In this document: positions 3,670-50,400 of the stretch, piece by piece
How the letters are laid out: each line of letters opens with the position of its first letter
Position numbering within the stretch: position 1 is the stretch's first letter
From: an uncultured Planctomycetales bacterium
GTDB taxonomy: Bacteria; Omnitrophota; Gorgyraeia; Zapsychrales; Fredricksoniimonadaceae
Assembly: GCA_964583975.1 (NCBI GenBank)
Contig: CAZOXU010000003.1
Coordinates: 7,805-71,804 of the forward strand
Direction: 5' to 3'
DNA length: 64,000 bases
Program-made: the position numbers and the translations under genes
Notes under the pieces: model-generated
The model's database searches: none
The model's input: only the letters and a program-made list of their open reading frames with translations
What the model was told of the DNA's origin: nothing

Positions 3670-3670
3670 C

Positions 3671-5361: not shown

Positions 5362-5420
5362 CACGCTTTGCAGAGCTTGCTGCTGCGAAGCTAAAAGCGA
5401 AAGCATTTTAGCGAAGCAGA

Positions 5421-5507: not shown

Positions 5508-5552
5508 ATAACCTTGGTTTTCATCTAAAAAAATGTTACACTTTTCTTAGAT

Positions 5553-5879: not shown

Positions 5880-5889
5880 TTAATTCTTT

Positions 5890-10895: not shown

Positions 10896-11353
10896 GAAAA
10901 CCTTCTCGGAAGAATTTAAGATTGAAAAATTGGGATTATTCTTCGGCAGGATATTATTTTGTAACCATATGCACACAAAATCGTTTTCCATATTTAAAAA
11001 ATCCTGACATAAACAATATACTCCATCAAACGTGGTGTGAATTAAAACAGAAATATGACAATATTGTGTTGGATGAATTTATCATCCTGCCCAATCATAT
11101 TCATGGAATCATTATCATCGTAGGGGCGGACCTATGTGTCCGCCCACAATTAGGGTCGACCCCTACGTTGGGCGAAATGATCCGTTGGTTCAAAACAATG
11201 ACCACAAATTATTTTATTCACGGGGTAAATAAATCTGGATGGAAACCATTCTTGGGTAGATTATGGCAACGCAATTATTACGAACATATCATCCGTAATG
11301 AACGATCTCTTTACGACATGCGACGATATATCACACATAATCATATGGAATAA
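10892..11353 (+). CDS. REP-associated tyrosine transposase (RAYT; IS200/IS605-like Y1 HUH transposase)
   Basis: 153 aa. HUH motif LPNHIHGII. Catalytic Tyr region WQRNYYEHIIRN. ATG overlaps comM stop (ATGA). Confidence 0.7.
   Translation: MRKPSRKNLRLKNWDYSSAGYYFVTICTQNRFPYLKNPDINNILHQTWCELKQKYDNIVLDEFIILPNHIHGIIIIVGADLCVRPQLGSTPTLGEMIRWFKTMTTNYFIHGVNKSGWKPFLGRLWQRNYYEHIIRNERSLYDMRRYITHNHME
11120..11166. repeat. REP-like palindrome GTAGGGGCGGAC..GTCCGCCC..GGGTCGACCCCTAC embedded in-frame in the RAYT gene
   Basis: Perfect outer inverted repeat GTAGGGG/CCCCTAC and inner GGGCGGAC/GTCCGCCC. Encodes VGADLCVRPQLGSTPT, inserted between the HUH motif and the downstream conserved helix. Confidence 0.6.
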
Positions 11354-11368
11354 TTACCGTTGAAACAA

Positions 11369-11404
11369 AAAAGAGGTTATCGGTATTAGCGATAACCTCT
11401 TTTT
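11369..11404. terminator. bidirectional intrinsic terminator hairpin (AAGAGGTTATCG-GTATTAG-CGATAACCTCTT + T-run)
   Basis: 12-bp perfect stem flanked by A-run and T-run, between convergent genes (RAYT on plus, coiled-coil gene on minus). Confidence 0.7.
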
Positions 11405-23007: not shown

Positions 23008-23367
23008 CTACGCTTCCTTCGGCCACCAGTGGCTTCTGATTTGATCTGCACAAGTTCTGGATAAATACTGACTGATTTCTTGCTTATCATCATCTTTGAT
23101 TCTACTAAATTCCATACCATAAAAATAACGTCCTTCAATTTCTTTATTCCAACGCACCTGGGCTTGAATATTTAGAACAAGATCGTCTTTTAAGTCTAAC
23201 AGCACATCAAACACATAAGCATCAGGTAATGGTTCTTTAGAGGAAATCTTAATTCCTTTTAAATTCATGTCCTCAATACAGCATTTTCGTTCCCATTCAT
23301 GTTCTCTTATTTTCATTTTTGCTTTTTCACCTATTTGCCAACGGGGGATTTGGCGAAGTTCAGTCAT
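23008..23367 (-). CDS. PilZ-domain-like protein (c-di-GMP binding family)
   Basis: 119 aa. RxxxR-like IPRWQIGEK and D/NxSxxG-like EDMNLKGIKI motifs in the right order and spacing. Confidence 0.4.
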   Translation of the reverse strand: MTELRQIPRWQIGEKAKMKIREHEWERKCCIEDMNLKGIKISSKEPLPDAYVFDVLLDLKDDLVLNIQAQVRWNKEIEGRYFYGMEFSRIKDDDKQEISQYLSRTCADQIRSHWWPKEA

Positions 23368-23410: not shown

Positions 23411-26400
23411 CTACCTTCTATAGTTGATTCTAAGAAATCCTCTGAGCCATACCCAGAGCCAAAAATAAAATCTACCGATCTTTTGAAGAATCTCTTCTAA
23501 TCTATTGGTCTCTGCCAAGGGCAAGATAGTATCCACTAGTGGCTCTAAAGATAACTGCTGTTCATCGTTGCTCCTTTGAAAAAATCTACTTTCACCATTG
23601 TTCATTCGATTTTCTCGATAATTCACTATTCTATTTTCTTCAATGGCGCTAGGATCCGCCAGCAGTGTACGTATGGCATCAAAAAACATCCCGTGGCCAA
23701 AGACAATGATTGTTTTGCCTGGATAAGATGCATTTAATTCATCAATAAATCTCTTGGCGCGAATAAGCAAGGCAATAAAATTCTCCCCACCCTCATAGGC
23801 TGCGGTCGCATCCATCAAAACCAATCGATCATAAACTTTCTTTGGCCCTGTCGGCAGCTCTTTGATGGCTACATTTCCTGCAACACCGATATTCATTTCT
23901 TTAATCCCCTGGTGGACAATGATCTGATGCTGTGCGATACCAGATAAAGTTAAAAATGCCTGGGCTGTCTGTAATGCTCTGCCCAAAGGTGAACTAATAA
24001 TCACTACCTTCTTTGCAACAATAGCTTGTCGATACTTTTGCCACAACCGTTGTGCCAAGAATCCAGCTTGGCTATGCCCCGTTGCATTTAAGCCATTAAA
24101 TTTAGGATCATCCTGGGCACCTTGCAGACAATGCTGAAAATTCGCATCAGTTTCACCATGACGAGCAATTTCTAAATCAAAATTAATTTTTAGGTTGCCT
24201 TTTGATCTTAGACGACCAGTTAATGGATTTATTTCAAGCAAATCTTCCATTTCTTCCAAAGTTTGCCACTTCCACCCGTTGGTTAAATCAAAACGAAGGC
24301 CAGGACCATAAGGCTTGAAACCCATTTTAGCAAGATTATCTCCTGCCTTTGAGGTCAAGCGTACGATCCAAGCTACGCTAAATCCGCGTCCTGCTAAAAA
24401 TGGAAACAACATGCACTTAAAATATTTCTCCATAAAACGCCAATCTAATTCTCCTCTACGGCTTCTTAACTTCCCATCACTGATAATGGCTTTATCATCC
24501 TTTCTTGTAATATGAATGAACATTATTGCATCGAGGCTTGATTGAGAATCAGAACGAAGCACAAAGGTTAAATAATTCTGATTATTGCTTACAATTCCTA
24601 AGGTAAAACCCCTTAATGATTTGGGAACCAAGTTCTGTAAAATCCATTGTTGAGGATCAGCATCGGTGATCTGCAAGCTCAGATTATGACGAGAATGTCG
24701 CAGATCTTGTGAAGCGGCTCCGACCCAGGCATTATGAGGATCTGGAACTTGATTAATGTCTAGGTAGTGAGATTGTTCTTCGATTGAGAGTGCTGCGTAT
24801 TCTTCAGGAGTAATTAAATGCCAAATGGGTTGATTCTCATCTGTGACAAATCGGGTTTTCTTAACCCATTTAGGCTTTTCCTTCAAGCCTGATTTTTGAT
24901 TCATCCATTGAATGACCGCCTGGATCTGTTCAATAAACTGACCTCTCTTTGTAAGAAATTTTCGCGCATTTTTCTTTATAAACTCTTTATGTCTAGATAG
25001 ATTCAAATGACCTAACTTAAAATGCGCCACAAATTGATCCACACACATACGTTGCGTAAAGGCAATTTCAAATCTTTGAGCGCCCTCACGAACAACTAAT
25101 AACGGCGCGTGCGCCAAACGCCGCTTAACCAAAACAACTGGGTCGTTCTTCTCTCCAATGATTTGCCAATAACGAAAACCCAGTAATGTACGACGCAATT
25201 TAACCTGGGGCTCATGATTAAAATGAAGCTCTACGTTATATTCTTTAAGCCAAGGGAGTTGAAAGACGCCTTTTCTGATTCTAAAAGGTGCGACATCTTC
25301 AAAACCTTTCGGAGGCATTAAAAATAGCGTGATATTATCAGATATTCTTCGACGTAAAGGACGGATGGATGAAGCAATCTTAGGAAAATTCTCTTTTTGA
25401 ATTTCTAAACAGTACTCTGCTCCTTCTCCAAAAAACACCGCATATAGAATCCAATTTAGAATATTAGCGACACCCAAAACAACAAACAATACAAACAATA
25501 CGTTAAGATCCCCATACAAATAAATGCCATAACCAATCGCAAAACTTGCTAAATGCACAAAATTGTCAAACAACGTGTAGACATTCACTAACACATGGCT
25601 GATACTGGCAAAGCCTCTCTTGACACTTTTAGGTGAATACTCAATCTCTCCCCAGTCGATTTCAGTAATTACTTCATGATAAAACTCATGTGTAACATCG
25701 AGAATAATGTCCCAAACAAGCAAAACAATAAAATAGGCGCTTGCACTTAAGGCAAACCAATATCCTGCGGACCAATGACCTTCAAAAGAACTTCTGGGAA
25801 TTGCTGCATAATTAATAGCCACAAGAATGATTTCAACAAGTGCATACACCAGAATAAAATTCTTCATATTCCTCAGTACTCGTAAATTAGCAACCTTACG
25901 CGGATAAAGACTTCCCTCTGGCTCAGAACTTCGACGATCTCTCCTATCTTGAGCAAATTTAACAGCCAACCTGGAAGACATTGGGCAAATGAACAATGCA
26001 ATTAATATGGATAAGACATGATTGTTTAAGATTTCATATGAAGCTAATACCCCTAATTCTTGCGCTTCATTTAAAATCATCGGCAGGAAAACTCCTTGTA
26101 AAATCGAACCGAAGAAAGTACCTGTTAAATAAAATAAAACGCTATTTCGATATACTTGAGAAAATCGCATAGCTGCAAAGAAATATCTGACTTGTAAAAC
26201 AAAACTCAATTTCTCATGCTTGTAAACAAAGGCGTCTAAGCCTTCTGAAGAAGACAAACCATCTTCGATATCTTCTCGACCATTAATATTTGAAAACTTG
26301 TGATTAGGAAGAAGTACGTTGATTCGGTTAAAAACTTTTAGAAATTGACTCTTAAGCTCTTCTAAAGGAATCTGCCCATTTTCATGCACCAAATTAACTA

Positions 26401-29400
26401 CTTTAAAGATTATTGTCCTAGGTGTAGATTCTTTAATATTCTCTGATAGAAATTGATCTGGCAGACGTCTTAAATCACTATTTTTGTCCCTATAAAATAC
26501 GACTTCTCGTTGTTGTTTGCTATCCAACACCTTGATCAGCGCACCTACACGCCAAGTGTTCTCATCTTGAGGATAAATCACCACATAAACCTTAGACTGT
26601 GGGGTGCTAAAGGTTAATCGATCCTCAAAATTCTCTAAACCTATTAATCGATTATTGTATTCATGACGATTGGCCTCATTCCAAAGTAGCGGAAATTCAT
26701 AAACGGGCAATTCTTTAACATGCTCTTCCACTTCCTCTTCATCATCCCCTTGTATTTTTTTATTACTTAGTCCCAGACCTATTTTTGATTTTAACCCAGC
26801 ATAAAACAAGAAAATTAATGCAAGACTAACCAGCAGACCAGCAACTATTAAAGGAATGGCATAAGGTCTATGATCACTTTCCTCATCATCTTGATTCTCC
26901 CGATTACTTAACTCTTGTTGTTCATTGACTTTATTATTGGGATTTTGTCTGTGGGGTAAGTCGAAGGTAAAGTTTGTTTCTTGAGTAGATCTTGAAGAAG
27001 TAATACCAGGTGCTGCCGTAACAATTGTTTGTGCTGAAGCGGATTGTACGGCAATGCTTAAGAATACAAACAACAGAACTACGGATCTTGTACCTGCTTT
27101 TAAAATTTGCGCAAATGCACCTCCATCCGTACCACCAGTACTGCTCGCTGGACCGCCAACTAAGAGAGGCTCACCATCTGGTGTGGCATCATCTCCTTGC
27201 CAATCTTGTGCATCTTCTTGGGGCACATCTCGATAGTCTGTGCTATTAGTTATAATTAAGGCATCAAGGATTCCTTCGGCACTCTGATCTTTATCTAGTT
27301 TTGAAAATGTCTTTGGATATTCTTCTCTGAAAATCTCTAATTCGGGTCTCTCCTTAATGCTTTTCTCTAACCGACCGTCTTTGATGGGAATGACCGAAGA
27401 TAAATGTACGCCAAAAATCTTATCCAAGCCTACCAGATACGCCGCATGTCTTACCATATCCATAAGATTAGTCTGTTCCGCATCCCGCTGAGAACGTAAC
27501 ACTGTTGTATGGCCAATCCAGAATCCTTCATTAGTGTATTCTTCCAAGGCGTTTTGCATCTTTTTACGACCATTGAGCATAAAAGCACTCAAAAGGAGTC
27601 TGCCTTCATCCTTATTACGTTTCATCCATCGCTCAAAATTTTCTCCTTTTAACGTCGTGTTATCATCAAAAAGAATGACTGTAGCCTTTGTTTTCATTCT
27701 AGCTTGTTTAACGCCATCCCAAAATTTAATGGCCTGCGTAATAATAGGACGCCTTCTGTAATAATCTCCCATATGCTCTGGTGCGCGCTTTTCTCTTGCA
27801 TCGTCCTCTAGTTCAGAAATCTCAAACCACACTTTGAAAGCAATCTTACGATCATTGTTTAAGAAAACTTCAATCTTCTCTAAAGCATCTTCTATGCTTT
27901 TAGAAGCTCCTCTGGCAAAAAGATACTCAGCTAAGGTTCTGATAGCTCCTACATCGATTGTAATGGCCCATTGTTTAAAAGCATCTTCACCTTGGCCCAT
28001 CTGTTCTAACCAATCTAAATAGAAATCCCACACTTTAGGAAACTCATTGTAGTACGCAAGTCTCTCATTAATTTGCCAATCCTTAGGAATCCAATCAAAA
28101 TAAAAGATTCCACTTTTATTGTCTAAAACCACAAATCGATGTTTTCTGGCTTTTTTCACCAGATGATTCACTGGATCTTCCCAAGCTTGAATTTCAGGAT
28201 AGGTCTTGGGCTTGATAGCTTGCTGCAAACTGTCACTCCTTCTAACAAACTCACGTTGTTCTATCGCATCTTCAATAATATCTTCTGAACTCCTTTGGGG
28301 AAACTGTATCTTAGTAGCCCCTTCTTTGGCAGCAGCTTCTTTCTTGGGAGGAAACATAATATCTCGTCCTGCTTGAGAATGTTCTTTCCAAGAGCCTACG
28401 AAAGCAAGGATTCTCTGGTTAATATGAGGATGTTGTCTAAATCTAGACAAGTGCTGATAAACATACATCTCAAATGCATCTCTTGCTTTCTCCTCAAATG
28501 AACATTGATCGAGTTTATAAGCTAAGACCTTGTAAATCTTCTGGATCAGTTTTAGATGTACTCGATGGTATTGCAAATTTCTCGCATTTTGAATTGTAAT
28601 CGATTCTTCTAACACGATCAGTCTTAAAAGCCAGTACCACATCGCTTCGGATGGTTGTTCAAGAATATTGAACATATATAAAGGTGAGGCTGGTTTAATC
28701 TTATCAACATTAAAAACCAATCGTAGGATCATTTTCTCAAATCGATCTGCATCTTCTTGTGTTAAACGTACATATGATTTTCCAAAGTTTTCTATGGCCC
28801 AAAATAGAAGATATGCGTTGGAAGTTGTGAATGTCTCGGGTCTTTCATATAAAAGCGCAATCAAAGCATAAATATAATGTTCCAATCTTTTAAAGAATGA
28901 CTTGGCCAAATCTTTTCCCCTCAAAACCAAGTCATTGTGATTACTTAACATTCTTAAAGGGTCCCACTCAATGACTGTCTTAAGCTTCTTAGCTATGTCT
29001 TCACGGACCATAATGCTCAAGGAAGGATCAACACGACTGATAGAAAGTTCTATTTCTGGTCTTTTTTGATGAGACTTTTCATCATCCGCTCCGACAAAAC
29101 AATTCTTCATATCTTTCAATCGGTAAATTGGCAAAGCCTTACCATTATTAGCTTGGGCAGACTCTTCTTTAAAAACCACGTGATACACCATTGATCCTTC
29201 TTGGGTTTCCCCAACCTTCTTAACATAAATTTGTCGTGCAATGTCCAGCCAATTGCGTCCGATAAGTTTCATGGCTTCTGAAATATTATAAATGCTCTGG
29301 CCATTCCAAATTCTAGGCTCAAGTCTCCCTGAGATATCCTCAGCTATCCCCATAAATCCTAAATCTTCTAAAGCAGCTATTAAACAATTGACCGTATCTG

Positions 29401-32400
29401 TTGAGCTGGCCTCACTTTTGGATGGTTGGCCTCTATTTAAACTTTTTGAATTCGATGCTTCAGGAATACCGATCATATATTCCCCAAAGAAAGGATCATT
29501 GCGAATAAGTTCTAGAATTCTTAAAACATCTCTAAATGGTATGTCTGCACCTTCAGCGAGACTTCGTTCGGTTGCGAAATCCCCGTTCACAAGCATGAGA
29601 CGCAGAATTCCTTCTGCTGCTGTCTTGTCGTCTTCTGAAAAACTTTCTAAGATTCTGGCAACCACTTCTAAAACACGCTCAACAAATCTTTCTGGCATAG
29701 GCTCACGTCCATCACCACGATTTAGCTCTGCATGCCTGAACTTTCCAAACAAAATTTGGAAATGGTTATACGTGACTCGCCTAACATCTTTGAACCAAAA
29801 TTGCTTTCGAACGTCTCTCGGATTTAATCCAGCCTCCTTTAGAAAATTGTCCCAAGATCCAAATTCACGGATAACTTCGATAACAATTAATTTCCCATCC
29901 AAACGAATGTTATGCATTTTTCTATCTGCTATAGAACCTAAGAACACTGCGCTATGCTGCTTCATGGCATATGAAGCAAGAGCCACCTGTCCTTGTGCTA
30001 AGGTTTGGATAATTTCAATTAACTCTTGATATCGAATATGTTTTCTAGATTCGGCTTTTGCCTGAGCCCAGGAGGTAAAAAACTTCTTTGAGACAACTAT
30101 TTTATATAAAGCCTTGCCGCTAACTGGCTGTTTAAACAATTTTGTTAACACAGCTTTAACCTTACCCTCTGGATCACCCTTAATGATACTAGGGCATAAA
30201 TAGAGTGGATCTAATTCTTTAGAAATTGCACCGATGGCCTTTAAGATTTTATTCTTTGACCACCGAATAGTCTTTGGAGCTTTTCGTATGTCTTTAGGAT
30301 TAAGTCCTAACTGTTCCAAAAACTTATCCCAAGATTTAAAAATACGTCCCACAGCTAAATAAACAGAATTAGTGCTAACTTTCTTAAGTTTATATCCATG
30401 TTCTTCTAGATAGGCTTTAATTAAAATCTTTAATTGATCGTTCTTATTCTTCTTAAACTCATATAAATTTAATTGAGCATTCTGTGATACTAAATACCTA
30501 CCAATATTAATAAGTAGCTCGTGTGTCCAGAGTTGCTGATGTGGCTTTTTAATATCTTTTTGATATTCGATTTTTTCTTGGGCAAGTGCTGTATTCACAG
30601 CTTTTTCCCAAGAACAAAGTTCTTTATTGTGGCGAGAAGCTTGATACAAAGACAAACCATTAAGTGGTTTTTCAAAATGCTTTGTTAAAACATCTTTTAC
30701 CTGTACCTCCTTACAAATAAAAGTGTTATTCAAAGAACTCAAACCTAACTGCGTACGTATAACCACAATTGCTTCAAGAATCTTCTGGGTGGTCCAAAAT
30801 TTCTTCCTTCCTTTCTCTTGTGCTCCGACCCAGGCATTTTGTGGATCAGGAACTTGGGTAATATCTATGTAGTGGATTTGTTCTTCGGTTGAGAGTGCTG
30901 CGTATTCTTGAGGAGTGATTAAGTGCCAGATGGCTTCGCCTTGGTCCGTCTTAAATCCAGTCAATTTGACAAATTTAAGCTTATCCTTTAATCCACTTTG
31001 ATTCTCTATCCATCGAATAACAGCATCAATCTGTTCAACAAACTGTCCGCGATTTCTGACAAACTTACGAGCACCGCTATCTCTAAATGCTTGCTGTCTT
31101 GTTTTATTAAGATGTTCTAAACCAAAGCTCGAAACATAGCGATCAACGCAAGTCGAAACTACAGAGGATGCAAAACGCCATTCCTCTGGCGTATTAATGT
31201 TTAAAACATCATCTTTTTCTGTTGAACAATAAAAACTAGCCATGCCAAAACCAATCATCCCCTTCCATCTTGCTACCCTTTGATTGATTCTACCCATTGC
31301 CAAAGGATCCTCGGGCAACAAAGGACGAGGATCATCAGATGTTTTGTTAGGTTGTAAAAGTGATCTTATTTTATGAAAAAGATTCTGCAGACGATAAGCC
31401 CAGCGACTCACAATAAATACACCCGTCCAAATTTCATCAATCTTTTCAAGTTGATGCGCATCATAACTGGTGCCATTAGGTAGGGTAATTTTTTGATTGG
31501 TCGAACGTAAATAATCAATCTCGCTTTGGGCAATGGTAAATTCAACTTCTTTCCAAGAATTGCGTACGACACGATCTTCTCCATGTGGATGCGAAACAAC
31601 TGTACTTAAAGCCATAAACGGTGGTGAACGGCCTGAAGAATTAAAAGCACTGTGCTCTATGAAATTGCGTAATGTTTCCTGGCTACGAATAATCGTGTCG
31701 CCAGGAGCAACTACAATTCGCTTGGCCGAAGTTGGAATAGCTCCTTTAGCACTAAATAAGGCATTGCTAACGCCCATTTTAGCAGTTGTAACAAAAACAT
31801 TGCCAGAGCCGCTAATTGCCTCTTCAAAAACTCGATGGTATTGAGGTCTAACTACACTAATTGTTCTAATACCTATTTGAGCTGCTGTGCCATTGATATA
31901 AGAAATCAGGGGCTGGCCTCCCACAGGAATCAATGGCTTAGGCAGATTAAAACCTAGGGATTGGATTCGTTTACCTTCACCTGCAGCCAAACGTATAACA
32001 ACCCAGTCTTGAGGATCAATCTCTTGCTTCTTATCTTCTTCAAAGGCATGGCGCAGGTCTTCACGGGACAATTTACCGAACTTCATACAGCTGAAATTCA
32101 AAACGACGTTATTATTCTTTCTTTTAGCATCTTTTAATCTTTGTCGATCTCCTTTGTGTTCTAGTGCAATGCCCCCTAATTCCCATATAAAAAATATTAA
32201 ACCTACAATGATTTTGGAAAATATGCTTTCCCGATGACCTTTTTCAAGAGGAGTAAAAGAACGATAAAATACATTGGCTATTCTCGTAATAAGGCTGGCC
32301 CTATGGTACAAGAATAAATCTGCTTCAATTCCCCATTCAGACAAATATTCCAAGCTCTGTCCCTCTAAGATCACGATCTTCTTGGTTTTATCGACAAGAA

Positions 32401-35400
32401 ACGTTCTTGCATCACGCAGATAATCTTCCCAGACCGCATAACTATTCGTAAGATTTAAAACTTTGATCTCATTAGCTGGAATACCAGACAGACCGCTACT
32501 GAGAATCTGGGATAATGTTGATTTTCTCGTTCCTCTTTCTCCTGCGATTACAATCACATACGGTCTTGTTATTTGATCCTCAGATATGGATATTTTCCTT
32601 ACACCATCAAGTATCCTGTCGCGGATATTGCGCAGAATCATGAGTTGGTCATCCTTATTATTAAATCGGTGATGAATGTAGGTGGTGATCACAAAGGCGA
32701 AACCTTGCCGGAAACCGAATTGCGGGAAGAATAAAATAGCTAAATAATTAAACAAAGTAATAAACAAAATATTATGCCATGGTGGTGGCTGAGGAGCATT
32801 TTTCGTACGCACAAAATGCAATGCAAAAAACACACTCCATGTGACTAGTGTTGCCAACCATACTGGCCATACGATCATGAGCACTAGATTTGCGCTCCAA
32901 CCTAATACTTGCTCAATCCAGGCTTGATGCTTACGATTAACACCCAATCGGTCTAATACAACTGTCAGCAATGGGATCATCCCACCTGTTGGTTGATCTT
33001 CTTGAGAGTTTTTGATTAAATTTCTCCAATCGATCCCTTCACTTTCAGCAATAGATGTCAAGAATACCGATACTCGTCGTCGGTTTATAACAGTAGAGGT
33101 GACATCATCATTATAAAAAACCCTGTCGTTATTTATCTTCAACAATCTTTTGATCATCGTTTTCGATAGTCTTTTTAATCCATGTCTCACACTCAGCGCT
33201 TGGAATATAATTTCCAATTGTGAGCCTGACAATCGAACAGAAGATTCATCAATAGCATCTGCTCTCCTTACATGCTCAGCAAAATCTTCCTCTGTTTTCT
33301 CAACAGCTGGAATTTCTTCACCCACCATCTCTCGCCAATTAATTCTTAAATGTTCTGCAACTAAAATCACAAATGCGCAGATGTATTGCAATTTTTCTAA
33401 AGAAATACCTAGAGAACGGACAAAAGCTCTATCAACGACAAGTTGAGGCACGCCTAAAATGTAAGCAATCATTGATCGCTGCAAGAATTTGAATTTTGTC
33501 ACAGCATTAATGCTTTCAAGAATTCGTTCTAACTGAACAGGTTCTAAGATAGGAGTTTTGGGTGCTCTTTCGCGTGCTGGCTTAACAAACGTTCTAAAAA
33601 ACTTAACCAATTCCATTCTTTGTTGGGACGCTCTTTTAGCTGAAGGCCACAAACATGGACTTAAGCTTTCAATAGTAGTTTTATAAAATTGAATAAGCCT
33701 GAGACGGAATTCTTTGTACTTTTCTCCCGTTGTATCAGACTCTATTTCCGACAACATTTTCTCATTGATGCCTATCCTGTGAGCGATATCCTTATTTTTC
33801 AAAGATTTATCAAACAAAAGCTGAACAAAAGATCTTATGAAAAATAGCTCTATTCCTCTTAATGAGTTGTTTTCAATGATATCTTCATCAGCTTTCTCAA
33901 GACCTAAAATCCTCTTCCAAGGAATACGATTGGTTTCAGTGAGAGCGATCAGGGTTTGTGTGACGCGTTTTTGACGTTCTAATACTGCAGCAGGTCCCTT
34001 ATCCTTAATATTCGTCAAAAGATACGTTTGTACTCCTGCATGTTGGGCTATATCAGCCTGGGTCAAGCCTGCTTCCATGGAAAGAACCTTAAATAAAACA
34101 ACAAGCTGTTCTTGAGTAAATACCAACACTGGAACTTGCGCCTCTACTTCCTTTTCCAATTCATCTAATATCCCCATCCACCTTAGACGAACTTCTTCTC
34201 CGGCTTGATATAAATCTTTTGCATTCTCTGTGCGTCGAACACCAGCAGAAGAATATCCTAATTTTTCAGCCATATAATCAGTTGATACATATCGCAAAGT
34301 CTGTTTTATTTTTAAACGGCGTTCTCTTAATTTATTTCCATCTTGTACCACCACCTTAGGTGATTCTGCTGCAATTGAGACGACCGATACTGCTTGAAGT
34401 TGAGTAGGCAAAATTTCAGTAACCTTTCGGGAAACTAAGGCTTCTTCCTGCTGACGAATTCTATCTTGTTCAATATGTTGTAATTCCCTGATTCTTACTA
34501 AGATTCCTTTTTCTCTTAATAAACTCTCTAAAACGTGATCATCAGAGATCTGTAATATCTGCTTAAACATATCCCAATCAAACCTGGCTTCATCGGTAAA
34601 GATGCCAATCAAGACTTCAGGAGTAAATTGGTGCGGATCTCGATGGTCGCGTTTTCGTTGCACGTCCTGATGGGCTGCTCGTTGTCGACCTTCGCGTTGG
34701 TTTTTCTTCCATGTGGCACCAACCAAATCATTCGAACCTATCATTCCACGATATTGAGAAAATGGAAGGTAGCCATTCTTTGCGCTTCGGCTATAAATCA
34801 TATGCCAACGATTTTGGCCTACTTTGCGAATATAAATGTGCTCCATATCTAGTTTTAATCTTGTAAAAACATCGATGACCTTAAAGAAATTCAAATAATA
34901 CTTCTTACCTTCTATGGTAATGGAGAAGTGTTTGAGATAGGTCAGCGCTTTGTGATTAGCATCTTTAACTTTTTGACTCTTCAATACTAAACAAAGTGCT
35001 TCATAAGCACAGTTTTGTTCATACATTTTCTCTTTTTTCTTATCGGCAACTATTTTCTCTTGCTCTAAAACTTGATCGATATTAGGAATCTTTGCTCGGC
35101 CGCTTTTCATAAGCTCCCAAGCTTGTAGTTTTAACCACTGGGCATCGGCTTTATTGATAATCGTTCCATTGCATACAGCCACTAAATAAGCTTCTGGCCA
35201 ATCTCTTTGGGCAGCTACATCAGCCAAACTGTACCCATACTCCCTAAATGTTCTGGGAACCCCTCTTAAATCCATAGCATCAAATTCTTTATAATCAATA
35301 GTTGGTACAAGACCTGTGGGAGCTGCCTTAGGTTCTGTTTTGATCTCTTCTTTAGGTTTTACCTTGGGCTTAAGTATCACAACAGACTTTTTGATATCAG

Positions 35401-38400: not shown

Positions 38401-41400
38401 GATCAGCCCGTAACACTGAATCATTGTTCTTTAAAAAGAAATCGGGTTGTTCAATTAAATCAGCGAGTTCTTCAACAGCGCTTTTCTTGTGCAAATGCTT
38501 CATACCACGCTGGCGCACCAGGAAGCTAGTAATTTCACTAGCCAAGAAATCTAAATCTTTTTTACTTAATTCCAGACTATTAAGCTCAATAAAGTTACGT
38601 TGCACAGTTTCATCTCCTGGAGCGTGTAAAAATCTTTCTTTAAATCCTTTTCTTAACTTCAAAAGCTTTAATCTTAAATTCTGCAAGCGTTGATCCCACT
38701 TATAATCCGGCCACAGTTCGTACAGATTACGTAAAACTTTTCCTTTTTTCGATGAATAAAACAATAGCAGCGGCACCAAGTAATCTTCGACATTGTGATA
38801 TCCGATTTGTTCGCCCAAATCTACCAACACCGCTCGACCATCTCTTAGATTACTATCAAAGAATTTCTGAGGAATATGCAGCTCATCAAACATAATAAAG
38901 GATTGCTCAAGCATTTGCTTTGCTACCTTCCCTATCTCTGGAGCCCTCCACACCTCTGGATACTTCATAACAACATTTCCACGATGGAGATCATATGGTG
39001 CGACAAAATCTTTTGTTTTTCCCTTATTTAATTCAAAGAAAACATTCATCAGAAGAACAAACACTTTATCGGCAAAAACCGGATCGATGTATTTAGTCTT
39101 TTGAATTTCTCGAATAGGTCGTCCATCAATTAATTGTTCTAATGAGACAATATAATGAGGCCCTTGGATAGGTTGAGTGCGGACCTTTCCAAATTTACCT
39201 TTTTTCTTCTTCTCGACGTAAATAACCTTTGAGATTCTGGGAACTAAGCCACTGTGTTCCAGTCTTTGGTGGGCCTCGAGCTCTCCTGGCTCATACAATG
39301 GCAAACCACGCCTTACGTCAGTTTTAATTAAAAGTTCAAATGTATAGTTCAAACCCTGATCATTCCGTAAAGTAACTGCATAAACGTCTTTGCGCATTCC
39401 GTACCCATGTAACCCCAGACCAACATATACAGTTCCCATAATATTAGGATTCTGCAGAATACTTTCGAGACGATCTTGGAAAACACCACGACCAAACTGA
39501 AGAATATGTGTAACTAACTCTAGAGCAAGGCTAGTGTCTTTTGTAACGTCTTTTAGGTCGATATCCCTAACAATTTTGAAACTGCCTATCGGGCGGGGTT
39601 CATCTGGAGGCTGACCTTTAGACTCCTCCGCCCCGATGTAATCTGTTAAAGGAAGATCGGTAAGCAATTTATTTGGCTCATTCCAAACATTTTTATCCCA
39701 CGATGTTGCATGCAGCCTGCCATTCTGAAATGTCATAACATAAATCCTCTGCAATAATTTAGGCGCATGATTTTTTAAAAACTCGACTATAAAATAAACT
39801 TGAAAATACGGATGCCCATCAATGACTCGCACATTTCGCAGTTCGTTTGAATAGATATATTTATAAAATCGGCGTGCAAGATCATCGGATACTTTCATCA
39901 ATATCTTAAATACACAGTTTCGGCAATTACGCCACTCTTGCGAATCTTCCTCAGGTTCTAGATTATCACTCGTTGTTCTTATATCTAAATATCCGTCATC
40001 TAACAAATCCCCATCATATTCATCTGAGGTGATTGCAGCCGGGTTCGTGCTTCTTTCAACAACATCTATTGGCCGTATAATTAGGTAAGGTTTTTCTATA
40101 GAATTATTATTGAGTAAACGAACAACTAAACTTTCAATCAATTCAAGTCCTAAGAATAAGATAAAAAGTATGAACCCTCCTATAACATAGGTAGAAAGGA
40201 CAAATTGGAAAGGAAAGATCGATGGGGGAAGAGGTTCCAAATATATCCAATCGTTCAATATGCTCAATACAACAATACTTATCGCTACAGGTTCTGCCTG
40301 TATCTTTTTACCCCAAATAAGAAACAAGCTAGATATAACTCCCACAATAGCTATAGGTAAAACCATGTTGGGCCATATCCAGAAAACTCTTTCAGGGACA
40401 GTGACCAAAACGATGTTTTCACTACGAAAATCTATGAGTTTATCAGTCCCTAGAACTATGGCCCCTACTAATAACGATTGAATAGTCGCAATAATGAGGC
40501 GATGTAAAATCTTAAGATCCTTGATACTCTTTTCAACATGAAATGTGTTAAGGAATGCTTGCCACCACAAATTAACCTTCCAGGGGAATAGTTGCGGCAC
40601 GCCACTTTGCTGATAGATGTGATAAGCTAGACCGAAACGCTTACCAAGCTCCTTTTCTTCTTGAATCGTGTGATAATAAGTCTGTATGACCGCAACAAGA
40701 CATAGAGCAAATAATAATACATTAGGATATATTAAAACCATCGACCCCATCATCAACGTCTGTAAGAAATATTGTGGATGGCGCACTAGTTGATATGGTC
40801 CATAGGTGATCGGTTGACCTTTATCAATACGCATTCCTTCTTGGCGGGTTTTTGAAAACCATCGATTAAGTTTTACTAAGGCTGCTGTACTTAAAACCAT
40901 TAACGACATGCCAATAGTAAAGGTGCTCCAATTAAATCCTTGTAAAATTCCTAGACTGGAAGATTTTTCTAACGGCAAAGCCATTAAAATCCCACTCGAC
41001 ACTTTTTGGTTTCTGTCCGGCGGGCCGCGCTGTGAGGCAGAATCCCCTACCCCTGTCAAACCAGAATAACTTCTATGTGTAATTCTTCTTTTTAATACCG
41101 CTAGAATAGAGACCTTTAAAGCCCTCCATGTAATTAGGGCCATTAATCCCAAAGACCAATGTTGAATTTCGAAATTGTTGCACCTGATGATTTGCTGCAA
41201 CATTCTTCTTATTTCAGAAGAATCAGAAATGGTTGAACTTTTAAACTCTACCTTTGTTGCAAAAATTCCAAGCACTCCTGGTTTCCTTCTTAAGAGTGAC
41301 TCGGGCAGGCGTTCCGGAAAGAATTTTTTCCAAAGAGGACGGTATCCAAAAATTGCCATGTCACCTTTGAGTATATTAAAAATCTGAGGAAGCTCGTCTA

Positions 41401-44400
41401 ACCCTGTCTTACGTAAAAATCTACCTATTCGTGTAGCTTGTCCTTTTCGTGGGCCTTTTTGAATCAAGGTAATAAATTTGTATATCTTAAATTTTTTCCC
41501 CAACAAACCTACTCGTCTTTGGGTAAAGAGGATCTTCTTTTCTTCGGAAAATACGAGGATGGAAACAGCAACAACAATCATCAATGGAAGTATAAAAATA
41601 AAAGCTATGCTACCAACGATTAAATCAAACGCCCGCATATTCAAAGGTTGCAAGTGTTCTAAAAACCAACGCCTAGCTTGTTTTAATTGAGAGAATGCGA
41701 AGAAATATAAATAAAGCAAACCTGCCCCTACTCCATAAGCCAAGATATCAAACCAATCAAAAACCATTCCCATATCATTTGGTTCACGAAAAGACGTCAG
41801 AGGCATTAAAACTTCAATGAGGCTACTTATAAATAGTGAAAGCAAGGTTATTTGTACTGCAGAAAGTTTTACATCAAGAATCCAATCCCACAAATATATC
41901 ACCATAGCAAGTAAGAACGGTAAAGAAACATCTGGCAATGAACCATTGAGGATGCCATCTACTTGTGTAATTTCAAAATTACTCTGGCGAAAATTCATAC
42001 CCCAAGCAGAGAGCCACAAGAATAATCCTGACAACAAGAAAAGTTCAATGAATTTATTCAGCCAATCTTTTCTGTGCGGATGCGCATATCTTGCAATAAT
42101 TCCCCAAAGAATCACAATTCCCAAAATTGCCCAAGTGGAACCCTCAAGATCAATGACATAAAAATATTCCTGAGCCAAAGCATTGCTTAAGATAAATCCT
42201 AGCAAGAGCATTAAACTTACGATTCCTACAAGAAAAACAACCGAAACAGATCCGACTTCAGCACAGCGATCTGTCGACTGAAGCCTGGCAATTGTCCTTT
42301 TAATCCACCAAACTCTTAGAAATGCCGGAGGATGTGATGTTTGCAAAATGTTTTCTTTGAAATAATTTCCTATCGTATCGGTTACATCGTAACCTGCTTC
42401 ATAAGCATAGGTAGCTCCCCAATAATCCGCCCTTAACTCCTTAAACCAACAGACCAACAATTCAGCGAAAACGATAGGAATCAATAAAACAATAGGGATC
42501 CCTAAATACCAAGCTATCATTGAAGCTAACGGAACGAGGAAAGGAAACGGAATAAGTGCTTGAGACATGTTACGAACAATTTTAAAGAATCTGTTTTCTT
42601 GCAAAGCATTGTTTCTAAAAGCGGTTTCTCTGAGATGAGCAATTTCATGGCCAAAAACAAAAGCATGATCTTTCTCACCCCTTTGCTTCATGTCATCTTG
42701 ATCCAGGGTAATTAATGCAGGTATACAATAATAAATCTGACTTCGTTGACCATAGCCTAATACGAATGGTACTTCTTCCAGGGGTTGATACGCCTTTGCT
42801 GCAGCATGTACGTTATCAAATATTCTTAAGATTGTTTGATCCTCAATGACTTCATATGTAGATGGGTTCTTAGATTTGAATGGATAAAAGAAACATCGTG
42901 CAGCGGCATACACAGCCATGCCGACCATGATTAAATCGTCAACCACAGAAAGCAGAACTATTTGGAAGCCCATGGCGATCCCTAATGACATGGATGGGAT
43001 AAGACGAATGTCTATCTTATTTTTATAGTACCTCTGTGTAAGCTTCGTCAGCAAAAATATCACAATACCGTAGGCAAACACATAAAAAATAAAATGAGGA
43101 TGGCGTTCTTGAAATGTTTGAGAAGATTTAAAGGTAGCCTTTATTGCAGACCACCGATTTACTAAATGCGCAGGAACATTTATGAGAAATTCTTCAACTT
43201 GCGGTTTGATTTTAACGATGAGATCTTTGAAGCTATTTAATTGTTGCTGAGTAATATCAGCATTCAATTTATTAATATACTGCGCTAGAAATGTTCTTAT
43301 CGCATCGCTATGCGCGAAACCACCAAACCCAACCGAAGCTTTCCTTCTAACATCAAAGAATGGATTGTTAGGATAAATTTCTTCTGTTGGCCAATTTAAA
43401 GGAAACTTTTTAAAGAACTCATCCCAAGTTAACCGTAATAAACCAACCCACTCATATGTTTGCTCTTCCTTTACTCTAAAAACAGGGGACCCGCTATCAC
43501 CACAAAACACAACCAGCGTTGAGAAATAAACTAATTTATGATATGTTTCATCGGTATGAGCTTGATCGAGAACAAATCCTTCAGGTAATTGTTTTTCTTC
43601 TTTGGCCATGACCCGACCATAACGTCCTTCCAAAAGAGAATCAGAAGGAATATGGATCCTACCCCACACTAAATTATTGGATATTAAATCAAACTCATAC
43701 GACTTAGATCTCAAATTCTTGATGGCTAGGGCAGCATCTGAATCCGCGATTTGATAAAATAAAACGATCGGATCTTCATCTTTAACCTTAGGTGCCAAGG
43801 AAAATGTGATACCCTTTGGCATAGGAACATCGTCTTGTGTTCGTAATAAAGACAGATCTCCTTGGGCTTTATCAAACTCATTAACTACTACAAACGTATG
43901 CCAGTCGTTCTTATCCGTACTGCCACGTTTTTTCTGCTGAACTAATTTAAAATCCTTCTCACATTTAGAGCAGACAACATGATACTCCGTTAGAAAAAGA
44001 TTATCAGCTATTTGAACGGCCCTACCTATTGAATATTCTGAATCAACATCATAAAGCAGCCCGCTAATATCAGCTTGGGTAAGTGAGTCTTGAGAATTTA
44101 AGATGCTTTGTAAATCTCGCAAATGGGATTGTTTTTGTCTAAGAGTTAAAGTAATCGCAGGTGCAGCAGCACTTTCAATCTGTGCTGATCTTCCCATCAT
44201 TGGTGGATGCTGAGCAAAAGCTGGAGCTGAAGCAAAACAAAGAACGGTCAAAACCCCTAGCCAGGCTTGACGCAAAGCATTATTGGTAGTACCCTTAATT
44301 ATATGATTAAACCATCTGCAGGTTACGTCTCTAATATCAAAAAAGCCATTGCTAAACTTCCCCCGAAAGAACGTGTTCAATTGATTGACTCTTTGCAAAG

Positions 44401-47400
44401 AGAAAGTTGGGCTCAAAGATTTAAGCAGCTTCTCAAACGCATCAATGCCCGCTTTGCCAAACATCCCCTGTCTGCTAAAGAGCTCAATAAAATTATTGAA
44501 GACGCTCGGGAAGAATATCATGCTAAAGGCAGTCGTTGATACTAATGTCCTCGTTAGTTCGCTTCTAAAAGGTACGACTGCTAGAAATATCATCGCCACA
44601 CTCACCCTCAATAAATTTACTCTTGTACTCAGCGAAGATATTTTTGAAGAGATTGTATTTACCTTACGAAAACCTCGATTAGCAGAATTTATTCCTGAAT
44701 CAGATATAATTGTGCTGTTTGCGTTACTGCACCAACGTAGTTTATTTGTTAAACCGAGCAACATTGTTAACATTTGCAGAGACAAGAAAGATAATAAGTT
44801 CCTGTCTTGCGCTTTAGCGGCTAAAGCTGACGTTATCGTCAGCGGAGATAAAGATCTGCTCGTGCTTAATCCCTTCGAAGGTATTGCAATTATTTCTCCT
44901 ACAGAATTTCTGATCATGCTGTACAAGGTTTGAATCCGAACTATCGCTTTTTTATTCCATGGCGTCCAGTCTTTGAGTGGAACAATGAAGGTTCCCAGAA
45001 ATGGACCAAACAAACGCCAAAGGTAAGCTTCTTCATATAAGAAAACAACCTGGCCTGACCAATTCAAATGAACAGCTTTGGGAGGAATTGCCCCTAAATT
45101 TTGTTTAAACCGTATAGGAGAAACAAGACAGAAGAATATAAAATGCACCATATATAAGCCAAAAAATATAAAAGCAAAATGTCCTACTATCGGTAAATAA
45201 AAATTAGTGAGGAATAAAACCATTAGTGATGGCAAGGCAATTATAAGACTTGCAAATTTATTGATCATTAAAAGAGCAAAAATCCAAGTGTCGTTATATT
45301 TAGATGGATTTTGCTTAAGATATTCCCCCCATGAAAGCGATCTAGTAGGCACATTTCTCTTCTCCCAAATCATCCAATAGACTGTTAACAGCGATAATGC
45401 CATTCCCAATGTAGTAAAGCCCACCGTGCTTCCACTAGCTACCAAAGCCGCTGATCCAATAATTCCTATTGGCAGAGCTGCGAATGTAAAACCACCTTGG
45501 GTTGATTGAGGGGTTGGATCTTTTTGAAGGTTTTGGACAGTCGGTCTTTGGGTCCATTGTTTTAATTTATTCCAGACAAGTGAAGCTCTAGCCTGCCGCA
45601 AGGCACCTTCCACCCTTTCTTTTAAATGTTCCAGCAACAGTCTGACATAAAGCTCCTCAGGGTGTTGAACAGCAGCTAATTTCACAGTATTAATCAAATA
45701 ATCTTCAACCACGCTCGAAGCATCGATCTTACCGATCAGAAGATTTGCTTCATCTAAACGGCGCAAAACCTTGCCCACTAAAAGTTCTCTGTTCTCTGGA
45801 TTTTGATCTACTTCCTCTAAGCGGCGCTGGGCGACATCAAGCAATTGCTCAGCCCAAGTTAAACGATTTTCATCAGAAGATCGTATCTCCTGCCGAGCTA
45901 AATCAAGCAAGGCCCCATGTTGCAAAGCAATCCCAGCATTGGCAATTTTTACCGAGTTGATATTGGCGCTTAATAAATGACTTGGTGTAATGAAAGAAAT
46001 GTCTGCTTTTCTAGTGAAACGTGTGTAATTCGAATATGAAAAAACACTAACTGGAAGATCAAGATCGTAAACGCCTTTAGGTTCTTTCATTGCTCCATCA
46101 ACAACAATGACTAGATCTAAATCCGGAGGGAATTCACGGAAACCATAAATATAGCTTCCCAAAACATAAATACTCCACACTTTCACATTAGGACCGATAT
46201 GTTTATAAGCCATGTCTTGAGCCCATTTGACAAGCACATCAGAATTAATACTATTAAGTCTCTCCACAAAAATAGTCTTGGCCCCGTCACTAAATGGGCC
46301 GTAAATAGTTTGGTTGATCTGTTGCAAATATTCCGGGGGCATCAAACGTTTAAAACGAGGATCTAATACCATCGGTTTAAATTGCCTTTGCCGTCGAGAT
46401 ATCCAAGTTAATTCAGATAACTGCGCAAGTGTCAAGTCATAGCGCCTGGCCAACAAACTTCGTACTTTTTGTACAGAAAGTCCACTATTACCCGATGCCT
46501 GCTCCCGACCCACTAAAATGGCAGCGACACTACGCAAATCTCCTTCAGTCAGCCAGAAAATCAGTTCATCATTAATTCTTGTGGTTAGGGCTGGATTATC
46601 TAATGTTGTTCCAGCTAAACCATGAAGAAGTGAAATAGCTATTTCACCTGGTGATTTACGACGAGATCGATAAAGAAATCCTAGAACTTTATCAAGATCT
46701 CTTTCAAGAAACGATTTTGGAAAATCTAAATACGCTGGGAATGTAAGAAATTCTTTGGTGTGCGAAGAGTTGCGCAAAAATTCTTTGATCTTACGTGTGA
46801 TGCGGACAATCCAAAACCAGTGTCTAGAGAATTCAAAACGGGATGAGTTATCTTCAATCAATTTAAACTTTGCTGTTCTCCAACCAATCCAATGCGCCAA
46901 CCAACTCACAAGACTTCCAATACGATGTTGGAAAATAATGCTTAAGAAGATTGCAAGAATGAGCACGGCATCAACTAATCGTGTGGATATTCCCAGAAAA
47001 GGTGCCGACAGCCCACTGAAGAATCCACCAATACCAAGGACCGTCAAAATCTTAGAAACAACTCTATTGTGAGAATCCTGGGAATCTGCTTTTTGCAAAA
47101 ATTCACTCATACTATCATCGGTGCGGATCCATATATCTAAAGAATCAACACCTTCGGTCAGTACGAATGTTACACTTACATTATTGTGTTCTTCATTAAT
47201 ATAATAGTTGACCCATGGCGGGATGTAACTCTCTCCATTGATAAGAATCACTGGCAGACCTTTAGGATCAGAACGAGGTTGATCTTCTTTTACTACCTGC
47301 CCCACATAACTTATTTTAAGGTCTAAATGATGCCTATCTTTTCTATCTATAACAAACAGATTAAGTTCGCCGTCTTTGTCTAAATAAAACACCCCTTCAT

Positions 47401-50400
47401 TATATGGATTGATGGCACACCCAATGGTTTGCCGTTTCTCTAAATGAATCGTGGTCCTAGCTAAACCTTTAGAAGAAGCCTGTAATTTGATTGTCTTAAG
47501 ATGCGGCTTGGGACGCTGTAAAATTCTTTGCTGCAACATTCCCGATTCAAAATCAATAATAGAACCTCGTCCCCACAAATAGGACAAAGTAATTTCCCAA
47601 TAAATAAATAATAAGTTGTGTGCATAAACGATAGCCCAGACATACTTGGTACACCCCGTAAAGAAATCTACGAAGAATAAAAAGTTTAATACAAGCACAA
47701 TAGAGGCATTGGCCATTACTCCCACAAGCGCTTTAAGACCATGGACCTTCCAGGGCATACCATGAAATAAACCAACCCCGATTCGCTTCCAACCATAATC
47801 ACTGCGTCGCCCATTTTCTGGCCCCACAACAAACTGTGCTAAATGATTTGGAATAAGGGCTGCTATAAATAAAATCTGTATGGTAAAAATTTGTAGGGAA
47901 CTTGAATTTCCTAACATCATAGGTAGATTAGCGACCATGGAGGTAGCTTGTTTCCTATTGCGTCGAGTCTTCACTGAAAACCAAGCATACACAACTAAGA
48001 AAATAAGCCATCCCCAAATCCATACTTCAGCCCAATTCCTTACTAACCAATCCCATAAGTTACTTCCCCATCCAGCTGATGCCAAAACGGTTATACCAAC
48101 GATCCCCAAAGGTAGGGCTGCAAATATAAAAACATGCATTTTAAGATAATATCTCAATAAATATAGGCTTAATGCTGCAACGCTAAGCAGGATAATGCTA
48201 GTATTGCTCCAGAAATTATTGCCATCTGCTTCAAGCAATCCTACCCAGGCCTTCTCAGGATTAGGAACTTGCTTAATATCTATATATTGGCTTTTTTCTT
48301 TGGAACTCAGTGCGGCGTACTCTTGTGGGGCAATTAAATGATAAATAAATTGACCATCCTCTGTTTTAAATTCAGTAAGCTTGACGTATTTGAGTTGATC
48401 TTTTAAACCACTTTGACTCTCCATCCACTGAATAACTGCTTGTATCTGTTCAACATGCTGATTAAGAGCGTGCACAAATTTACGCGCACCCATTTTATTT
48501 AAAATCTCATGTCGTTTTTGGTTTTGGTTCTCTAGCCCAAAGACCGTAACGTACCTATCTACGCACATGGGTAAAGATAAACGTGGAGTTAAAGCTATAA
48601 ACCTAGCAGGATCCATCGACAAAGACCTGGCTGCATCCGCATTTAACGGCAGGATTATTGATATTTGGCTTGCCCTTCTTGGCTCGCTTACAATATGAAG
48701 CTTTCCTTGATATAAAAACTCCGCAACCATTCGGGCCGCTTGCAAACCAGTTCCAGCACCATAAGCAAAACCCTGAGCCATTTGTCCTCTAAAGCCATAA
48801 TTCCCTAAACTCAATTTTTCATTCTGGTCAATCCCAATGCCAGTATCTGCAACTGTAATAATTACAATTCCATCATGTTTTTGTAAGCTAATGGCAACTG
48901 TTGAATTTACTAAAGAATATTTAATGGCATTGTGAATCACTTCTCCAATTACAACGTCCTTTAAATTAAGTTCGCCATCTTTAGATTTGATAAAAATCTT
49001 CTGATCAGGAAGATCCATCTTTAAAGTGATGTTTTTGCTTTTAGCAAAGCCTCCTAGATACGTCCCTTGAACCAATTGCATAATCAATTCATTTAAATCC
49101 AAGAGGTTTTCTGTAATATCGCAAGCCGTGCTAGTGGCTGTGACTTTGGACTGATTAAAATTAGCGCCTGACACTAGTTTTTCTGGTTCTTCACTCTTTA
49201 CAAACGGCTTAAACGATAAATACTTCATAGCCCAGAATGTCAAGACAGCCGAAGCGATATGGACCCAGAAATTAATGTATAAACTTTCACCTTCAAGGAT
49301 TCGAGTGCGGAAATTGTCCTTGGTCTTACCCATCTCAACCAAATTAGCCAAGATCCACAGGAAGCTAGCAACGCTCAAACGGATCATCAGTGAACGTCGT
49401 TTTGATTGCTTATCCGTTCCATTAAGGTTTAAATCTTTGCCCTTACGCATAAACCCGAACACAGATATAAGATAGAAATATCCGGTAAGGGCTGGAATAC
49501 TTAAAATCCTTAAATACTGTGCATTAAACTGACTCCACAAGCTTCCATCAGCATCCATACGTTTAAAATAACGGAGGAAACTGTTATTAATGAGATCCCA
49601 ATTACCAACGATATCTTTGCGAATAATAACAAGAATGGTTAAGGCTATAGCAGAAACGAAAGAAATTACCGTTGGCCAATAAATAAACGGACGTGTTTTT
49701 ATCAAAGACTGCTTCTGATAGAACTGTTTATAAAATACATACCCACCTAAGACAACAGCATCCAAAGCCAACATGACAAACATCAGATTCTCATAAATAA
49801 ACGGCCTAGCAATGGTGGATATTGGGGTCACCAACCACGTTATTGTAGTTAGAATGCCCAGCAATGCCATTCGTAGAGCCCAAGGCATCTTTAAAATTTG
49901 CGGTTCTTTGTAATCTACAGATTTTTGTGCTAGAAACACACTACGAATACGGCGAACATGTGGAGCATCAATTTCCTCACGCTTAACTTCCCGATGGATC
50001 GCCTGAATATTTTCAAAACCAATCTTCTTTAGCATTCCTGGAATTCGTCTGGCAGATTGACGATTGGTGCGGCTTACCCAACGTGGCGGAAGAATATTGG
50101 TGATAATAATCCATCCGCCGGGCTTCAATTCATTAAACGCATGGCGATAAGCCGCTCTTACTCTTGACCAACGTTCAAACCAAATGTATTTAAGCCAATT
50201 AAAAAGCTCTACTACAGGCCCTTCAATAGAATGATATAGGTTTGTATTAATGAGCTGCAACCATGACAGTGGATCATTCCATCGTGGCTGTGCATTCCAA
50301 GCTACAAAATCACTGACTCGATGAAACACAACAGCATTACTGCCTGGATATTCTTCTTTAGGAAACCAACGTTTTTGGGTAGCTACATCAATACCAGTCC

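Follow-up and report, generated by a model that had tools for sequence, protein, structure and literature searches.

A recurrent Cys-His module with a predicted cleavage site of its own in a giant Omnitrophota protein

It is an open question whether the proteins of 10,000-150,000 residues encoded by Omnitrophota work as intact chains or are processed into smaller products. West-Roberts et al. (2023) stated that no point of cleavage in these proteins is known and speculated that C39 or S8 domains might cut them, and cleavage is absent from the discussion in a later study (Nielsen and Lui 2026). The question is raised here by a stretch of 64,000 nucleotides (nt) of contig CAZOXU010000003.1 (GenBank assembly GCA_964583975.1), hereafter the window, in which a single minus-strand open reading frame (ORF), 23411..63970, encodes 13,519 amino acids (aa). 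An earlier note on this DNA had described three dispersed copies of a conserved module of about 110 aa inside this giant ORF and had proposed that it is a docking or adaptor domain. We report that the module recurs at five to seven places in the giant ORF and that, on balance, it is probably a minimal papain-like autoprotease that would cleave itself in cis behind its C-terminal Gly; the giant protein would then be a polyprotein.

Module copies, their signature and the constraint on them

The three stretches do not read through on the plus strand but read in the frame of the giant ORF on the minus strand, where they correspond to aa 5125-5245, 10940-11050 and 12975-13085 and agree with the motif string of the earlier note. 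Their mutual identity is 52.8-62.7% over 110-125 aa (E 3e-35 to 3e-44, chunked self-BLASTP), which bears out the repeat itself; the number of three is an undercount, as two probable divergent copies and two candidates lie in the same ORF. The copies are the following (a slash marks the predicted cut):

48239..48565, minus strand: M1, the first of the three known copies, aa 5136-5244; Cys5136 at 48563-48565, His5211 at 48338-48340, Gly5244 at 48239-48241; junction ...KAWVG/LLEADG
39632..39916, minus strand: D4, candidate copy, aa 8019-8113; C8019, H8087, G8113; junction ...TDYIG/AEESKG
36275..36574, minus strand: D2, probable divergent copy, aa 9133-9232; C9133, H9202, G9232; junction ...RAFIG/AQNIDA
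35765..36193, minus strand: D3, candidate copy, aa 9260-9402; C9260, H9369, G9402; junction ...NAWIG/ADRISL
30824..31150, minus strand: M2, the second of the three, aa 10941-11049; Cys at 31148-31150, His at 30923-30925, Gly at 30824-30826; junction ...NAWVG/AQEKGR; the copy whose structure was modelled
29090..29386, minus strand: D1, probable divergent copy, aa 11529-11627; C11529, H11597, G11627; junction ...NCFVG/ADDEKS
24719..25045, minus strand: M3, the third of the three, aa 12976-13084; Cys at 25043-25045, His at 24818-24820, Gly at 24719-24721; junction ...NAWVG/AASQDL

The divergent copies D1 and D2 align with the module along its full length. The D1 region (aa 11557-11631) was picked up by a hidden Markov model (HMM) built from M1-M3 and one outside homologue, P0002 (independent E-value, i-E, 0.0075), and D1 is linked to D2 by BLASTP (aa 9132-9203 against 11528-11598, E 1.3e-6), while the profile-profile evidence for the pair is weak (hhalign of the A1 alignment against D1+D2, P 0.003, in which T, H and G coincide); judged from their sequences, both are probable copies. 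D3, which starts 27 residues past the end of D2 and has a longer N-terminal half, is a candidate copy on the strength of its C-terminal half (hhalign P 3.8e-5, His and WIG aligned), its N-terminal Cys having been assigned by eye alone. D4, likewise a candidate, was found by a signature scan and is not significant by hhalign; its AlphaFold2 (AF2) model, for which the other copies served as the input alignment, has a predicted local distance difference test score (pLDDT) of 80.3 and presents the secondary-structure elements in the order of the M2 model.

When 1.84 billion representatives were scanned exhaustively with HMMER for homologues outside the window, one true homologue came up, P0002, on a 3.2-kb contig of GCA_035290945.1. 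The best-scoring match of that scan, P0001, was rejected as false: it is a low-complexity protein of 819 aa made of about 14 near-identical 58-aa repeats, matches the ...P.HN..VGLL tail of the profile alone, and is not a member of the family. Copies were also found in the syntenic giants of relatives at three loci: in L004 over the full length (hhalign P 3.9e-4), in L005 by signature alone, and in L007 (HMM i-E 0.0027) together with a partial second copy. Copies beyond the window are thereby placed in four other Omnitrophota-type assemblies, and those in relatives were found by HMM or signature alone.

Eleven complete copies were compared, namely the seven of the window plus P0002, L004, L005 and L007b. 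Their pairwise identity falls to 13-20%, and it is directly seen in the alignment that only the Cys, the His and the C-terminal Gly are kept in all of them, in a protein that is poor in Cys (52 Cys in 13,519 residues, or 0.38%). The layout is C-x68-79-H-x26-44-G (with 109 residues from C to H in D3), ending in [WFY][VIL]G/A: the residue before the His is aromatic or Leu, P3-P2 are [WFY][VIL], P1' is Ala in 9/11 copies, and a polar, often acidic, linker follows every Gly. An N-C dipeptide stands at the Cys in six of the eleven. The strict signature C[VL]..H..[WFY][VI]GA occurs five times in the giant protein against 0.01 expected from shuffles, and twice in 13.6 thousand residues of related giants against 0.003 expected, figures that are indicative rather than formal, the signature having been partly refined after hits were seen.

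The near-identity of M2 and M3 over about 100 nt, as reported in the earlier note, stands well clear of the background: ungapped nucleotide identity is 87% over 100 nt (88% over 60 nt), against 27% ± 4.6%, with a maximum of 47%, for random in-frame 100-nt pairs of the same ORF. The two sides of this tract are:

30823..30922, minus strand: conversion tract in M2, from the codon after the His through the Gly codon
24718..24817, minus strand: conversion tract in M3, 87% identical to 30823-30922

Within the tract the same codon is used at 22/27 degenerate codons for identical residues, where codon usage would predict 43% (binomial P = 5e-5), and the rate of synonymous substitution (dS) between M2 and M3 is 0.35, compared to 1.74 in the remainder of the module. 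Because synonymous sites are also shared there, this one short tract, the His-to-Gly segment formed by the last ~100 nt of the module, is homogenised by gene conversion. Recent duplication or conversion, as first proposed, therefore holds for this segment only, and the rest of the two copies is anciently diverged at synonymous sites. Outside the tract and in the other copy pairs, synonymous sites are saturated (dS 1-2.8) and the ratio of nonsynonymous to synonymous rates (dN/dS) is about 0.17-0.29; saturated dS together with dN/dS about 0.2 marks the copies as ancient and as held by purifying selection, a constraint that, like the repeat itself, is read directly from the DNA.

Predicted fold, viral counterparts and rival readings

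Although built from just five sequences, the AF2 model of M2 is confident (pLDDT 91.7; predicted template modelling score 0.86). In the model the first helix (residues 6-12; 8-16 in D4) opens with the Cys, and the His sits in a β-hairpin, on its second strand (78-83; 75-79 in D4). The A-W-V of P4-P2 forms a confidently placed strand, and confidence falls past the Gly. The nearest structural neighbours of the model are papain-like viral proteases that cleave in cis, the top two being strictly cis-acting autoproteases from a small class, the reduced papain-like leader proteases of RNA-virus polyproteins, which make a single cut past a Gly at their own C-terminus. In a Foldseek search of BFVD the top match was a Peptidase C7 protein and a closterovirus replicase was also listed, with weak scores (E 0.078), and Foldseek against the PDB gave no meaningful match. 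The model fits the reduced papain-like three-dimensional fold, and its putative Cys-His dyad is placed as in the viral autoproteases, where the Cys begins an α-helix and the His follows on a β-strand some 60-75 residues downstream; the motif of a C-terminal scissile site of its own (in those enzymes Gly at P1 and a small P1' residue, 30-45 residues after the His; in the module 26-44 residues after it) is present, as a predicted site. An intein or Hint domain was also considered, as the module starts with Cys and M3 ends in 'HNA', and was rejected: the predicted fold is α+β and not Hint-like, there is no +1 Cys, Ser or Thr, and the sole Hint match had a probability of 0.10.

In geometry the module matches these viral enzymes. 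HC-Pro and nsp1 are described as papain-like cores pared down to a helix with two or a few strands (PMC10318531). In HC-Pro of turnip mosaic virus, 73 residues separate the catalytic Cys706 from His779, and cleavage takes place at YxVG/G; once cut, the C-terminus remains lodged in the active site, so that cleavage is limited to cis, and bymovirus P2-1 has the site (Y,F,G)xG/(A,N,S) (PMC6357015). In nsp1β of PRRSV, the virus that causes porcine reproductive and respiratory syndrome, Cys270 and His339 are 69 apart and the protein ends at Gly383, with nsp2 beginning at Ala384 (PMC13512413, PMC5960727). Because its size, the way helix and hairpin carry the dyad, the spacing and the Gly/Ala junction match those of HC-Pro and nsp1β, we read the module as a minimal Cys-His autoprotease. 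It may at most work like the viral enzymes and is not a member of their sequence families, because neither Pfam nor the PDB sequence profiles matched it: no Pfam family matched any copy or its flanks even at E≤10, and MEROPS/Pfam families C6, C7, C8, C31, C32 and C42 were among those without a match in Pfam and PDB sequences.

The module also differs from each of these systems. The potyvirus HC-Pro protease domain (MEROPS C6; PDB 3RNV) has no detectable sequence similarity to the module and is found once in each viral RNA polyprotein, whereas the module lies on a bacterial chromosome in 5-7 copies per ORF, between membrane and enzyme blocks. The arterivirus nsp1β protease PCPβ (PDB 3MTV) and nsp1α are viral and also without sequence similarity to the module, and nsp1β carries an extra N-terminal nuclease-like domain and has 44 residues from His to Gly, against 26-33 in most module copies. 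The hypovirus proteases p29/p48 (Peptidase C7/C8) and the closterovirus leader protease L-Pro (C42) resemble the module by the weak Foldseek matches given above, and L-Pro of beet yellows virus has Cys509, His569 and a G/G site. Tandemly duplicated L-Pros exist and parallel the adjacent D2-D3 pair; these enzymes differ in being viral, with one or two copies per polyprotein. Among bacteria, the releasing peptidases of polymorphic toxins, such as the papain-like Tox-PL1 and PLOTU, are similar in setting: they lie within very long multidomain proteins, and their autoproteolysis has been inferred to free the downstream modules (Zhang et al. 2012, PMC3482391). The 'NC...H' signature of Tox-PL1 is partly shared by the module (N-C in 6/11 copies, His in all), whose copies do not have the conserved DxQ of that enzyme. 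Neither is there a Pfam Tox-PL match or a toxin/immunity context: what lies downstream is a His_Phos_1 phosphatase or transmembrane (TM) blocks and not toxins, and the cargo is made up of membrane blocks and enzymes of a housekeeping type. Peptidase C39, the bacteriocin double-glycine leader peptidase (ComA, HlyB-like), forms the N-terminal domain of ABC exporters, from where it cleaves leader peptides in trans (PMC10318531); its structural score was below those of the viral cis-proteases, and PF03412 did not match the module.

Where, then, would such an enzyme act? A papain-like Cys-His enzyme could instead work in trans, with the conserved C-terminal WVG as merely a structural strand, on substrates such as prey or host proteins, cell-wall peptides (as NlpC/P60- or transglutaminase-like enzymes), ubiquitin-like modifiers (Josephin-like) or Gly-Gly leaders (C39-like). 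We regard this as unlikely, given that the two closest structural neighbours are strictly cis-acting, that the Gly varies no more than do Cys and His and is followed by a small P1' residue and then a polar linker, and that the giant ORF of the relative L001 terminates exactly at P1. The module is also far smaller than the trans-acting relatives, no third catalytic residue was found in it, and the Pfam models of C39, NlpC/P60, Josephin and transglutaminase were without a match at E≤10.

In the docking or adaptor role put forward in the earlier note, a non-catalytic domain would organise the neighbouring enzyme blocks; such a domain could also be a spacer, or a pseudo-protease that keeps the fold. 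In favour of this, the module is scattered between unrelated enzyme blocks, no known enzyme family is matched by sequence, and some terminal copies in relatives (L001, L003) seem to be without the Cys or the His. A binding surface, however, would be expected to keep a patch of residues, and at 13-20% identity nothing survives but one Cys, one His and the Gly at the end; the retention of a Cys in a Cys-depleted protein argues for chemistry, and there is no consistent neighbour to which the module could dock. Whether the module precedes each M50-like/TM block was also raised in the earlier note; of the three copies, M1 alone precedes a TM block: M2 is followed by soluble repeats, M3 by the final 435 aa of the giant ORF, which carry His_Phos_1, a histidine-phosphatase domain, and Pfam detects no M50 domain in the giant ORF. 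Because only Cys, His and Gly are conserved and the fold is close to papain-like viral proteases, we consider an enzyme with its own cleavage site the better description than a passive adaptor, a role which these data leave unsupported and which appears improbable to us. A winged-helix/MerR-like or SAM-like domain binding nucleic acid or protein, as the many matches to helix-turn-helix (HTH) types elsewhere in the giant might suggest, is the least credible of all, and we give it very little weight.

Returning to the autoprotease reading, what we infer is the catalysis, its action in cis and the exact scissile bond. A Cys-His dyad would catalyse a single turnover in cis, during or soon after translation, at the peptide bond after the C-terminal Gly of the module, with the consensus [W/F/Y]-[V/I/L]-Gly/Ala followed by the polar linker. 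With seven copies there would be as many as eight products, with lengths of about 5244, 2869, 1119, 170, 1647, 578, 1457 and 435 aa, and every product but the last would end in the used protease, as is the case for potyvirus HC-Pro and arterivirus nsp1. Three observations are consistent with such cleavage. The HATPase_c domain, which is the usual C-terminal domain of histidine kinases, ends 26 aa before the start of M1; the first hydrophobic segment begins 14 aa past the final Gly of M1, which would place a hydrophobic helix within 14 residues of the new N-terminus; and the L001 ORF ends exactly at P1.

The host ORF, its relatives and its neighbourhood

The flanking genes (mutS, mutL, accA, rlmN, birA and a PilZ-domain gene) are ordinary bacterial chromosome genes, and the nearest relatives of the MutL (60-75% identity) come from metagenome-assembled genomes of Candidatus Omnitrophota, five of which also have a very long minus-strand ORF after mutL. 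The host ORF is an Omnitrophota giant gene of the Archaeovorin-like or multi-enzyme type. With the class described by West-Roberts et al. (2023) and Nielsen and Lui (2026) it shares a length above 10,000 aa, an Omnitrophota genome, many TM segments, domains of methyltransferase, glycosyl/sugar transferase, peptidase and HATPase_c type, and the pilZ gene that comes directly after it; pilZ homologues come after most Omnitrophota giant genes (West-Roberts et al. 2023). The module and any defined cleavage point are absent from both of those descriptions. The gene in question is:

23008..23367, minus strand: PilZ-domain gene, directly downstream of the giant ORF (PF07238, E 1e-10)

Dozens of hydrophobic, TM-like segments are found along the giant protein (76 windows with mean hydropathy ≥1.6, many of them overlapping), and Pfam domains above or near the cut-offs are Sigma70_r4, HATPase_c, Peptidase_M48, Bac_transf, PEMT/ICMT, SAM methyltransferase, NTP_transferase and His_Phos_1, with Trypsin_2 and several HTH families below cut-off. 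SecA_DEAD, a domain that many but not all members of the class carry, was looked for in the giant ORF and not detected. The 30 nt from the ATG at 63970 to the window edge (63971-64000, minus strand) hold no in-frame stop, and because they are open the length of 13,519 aa is a minimum; the ORF may extend past the edge, and its first 39 residues contain a hydrophobic, signal-anchor-like stretch.

Giant ORFs at this locus diverge very fast. The C-terminal 3,600 aa of the window's giant found essentially no matches in the syntenic giants of relatives by tBLASTN or BLASTP. Two of these giants, L001 12385-21795 and L003 14860-21885, both on the minus strand, show almost no BLAST-detectable similarity, while their MutL proteins are 70-74% identical. 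Both end in degenerate, module-like tails. The L001 ORF stops exactly at the P1 position, with ...NPQEAWIS before the stop codon, and its terminal copy appears to be without the Cys; the tail of the L003 ORF reads ...INRAWVGRIPDNSTSGILY up to the stop, with Arg replacing the His. Neither has a counterpart to the final 435 aa of the giant ORF, which carry His_Phos_1. Wider searches for the module returned no homologues from 5.8 billion proteins (word-indexed search, three profiles), from the contigs of GTDB genomes or from JGI metagenome contigs, and a degenerate DNA pattern for P[DN]PxxAWVG gave 21 matches, all either unrelated (mostly a 'APDPHQAWVGASAFAHKAG' enzyme) or out of frame.

Other features of the giant ORF deserve mention in their own right. 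Its N-terminal half contains two large internal duplications at 28-39% identity (E down to 2e-77), one of aa 763-1354 with 3342-3893 (~59909-61684 and 52292-53947) and the other of aa 1355-2198 with 5365-6156 (~57377-59908 and 45503-47878); the paralogue of aa 1355-2198 sits just downstream of M1, and aa 1355 itself has no preceding module copy. M2 and D1 are separated in part by a tandem repeat with units of about 170 aa (aa 11059-11230 and 11237-11389, ~29804-30796, 30% identity), and one of its units has a borderline match to Pfam HNH_repeat, a homing-endonuclease-associated repeat. At aa ~6565-6590 (~44201-44278) the internal sequence ...RQAWLGVLTVLCFASAPAFA/QHPP resembles a signal peptide and may be a second processing point, of the signal-peptidase type; it stands some 60 aa upstream of a weak, below-cut-off match to a trypsin-like peptidase. 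In two regions, aa 489-711 and ~3480-3725 (~61838-62506 and ~52796-53533), there are matches to Sigma-70 region 4 (above cut-off), to Sigma-70 r1.2 and to several winged-helix families (HTH_24 marginally above cut-off; GntR, MarR, HTH_11 and AsnC below), and such transcription-factor-like modules are unexpected within a giant envelope protein otherwise rich in membrane segments and enzymes.

Elsewhere in the window, the following genes were observed:

10892-11353, plus strand: small ORF of the IS200-like Y1 transposase family (PF01797, E 8e-7), overlapping by 4 nt the end of a Mg-chelatase/ComM-like gene (9384-10895)
11420-14392, minus strand: large gene upstream of mutS, encoding a 990-aa protein whose sole match is the coiled-coil-type ATG16
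15065-17839, minus strand: second large gene upstream of mutS, encoding a 924-aa protein with right-handed β-helix and IPT/TIG domains

Implications for giant Omnitrophota proteins

The module supplies the giant proteins with cut sites predicted at the level of single residues and with a candidate enzyme to make the cuts. If no cleavage occurs, it would still be a new, strongly constrained and lineage-restricted family of Cys-His domains. If cleavage is confirmed, a bacterial lineage would be added to the minimal papain-like autoproteases, so that the reduced papain-like leader proteases of viruses would gain a cellular counterpart, possibly a relative, and annotation and structure prediction would gain a rule for splitting giant ORFs into functional units. 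It is conceivable, although we hold this wider proposal more tentatively than the reading of the module, that the multi-enzyme giant ORFs of Omnitrophota are true bacterial polyproteins, an 'operon inside one ORF', in which embedded single-turnover cis-proteases would cut co-translationally at [WFY][VIL]G/A and release separate membrane and enzyme subunits. To our knowledge, expression through polyproteins has so far been known mainly from RNA viruses, and its confirmation here would mean that a cellular organism uses this viral-style strategy.

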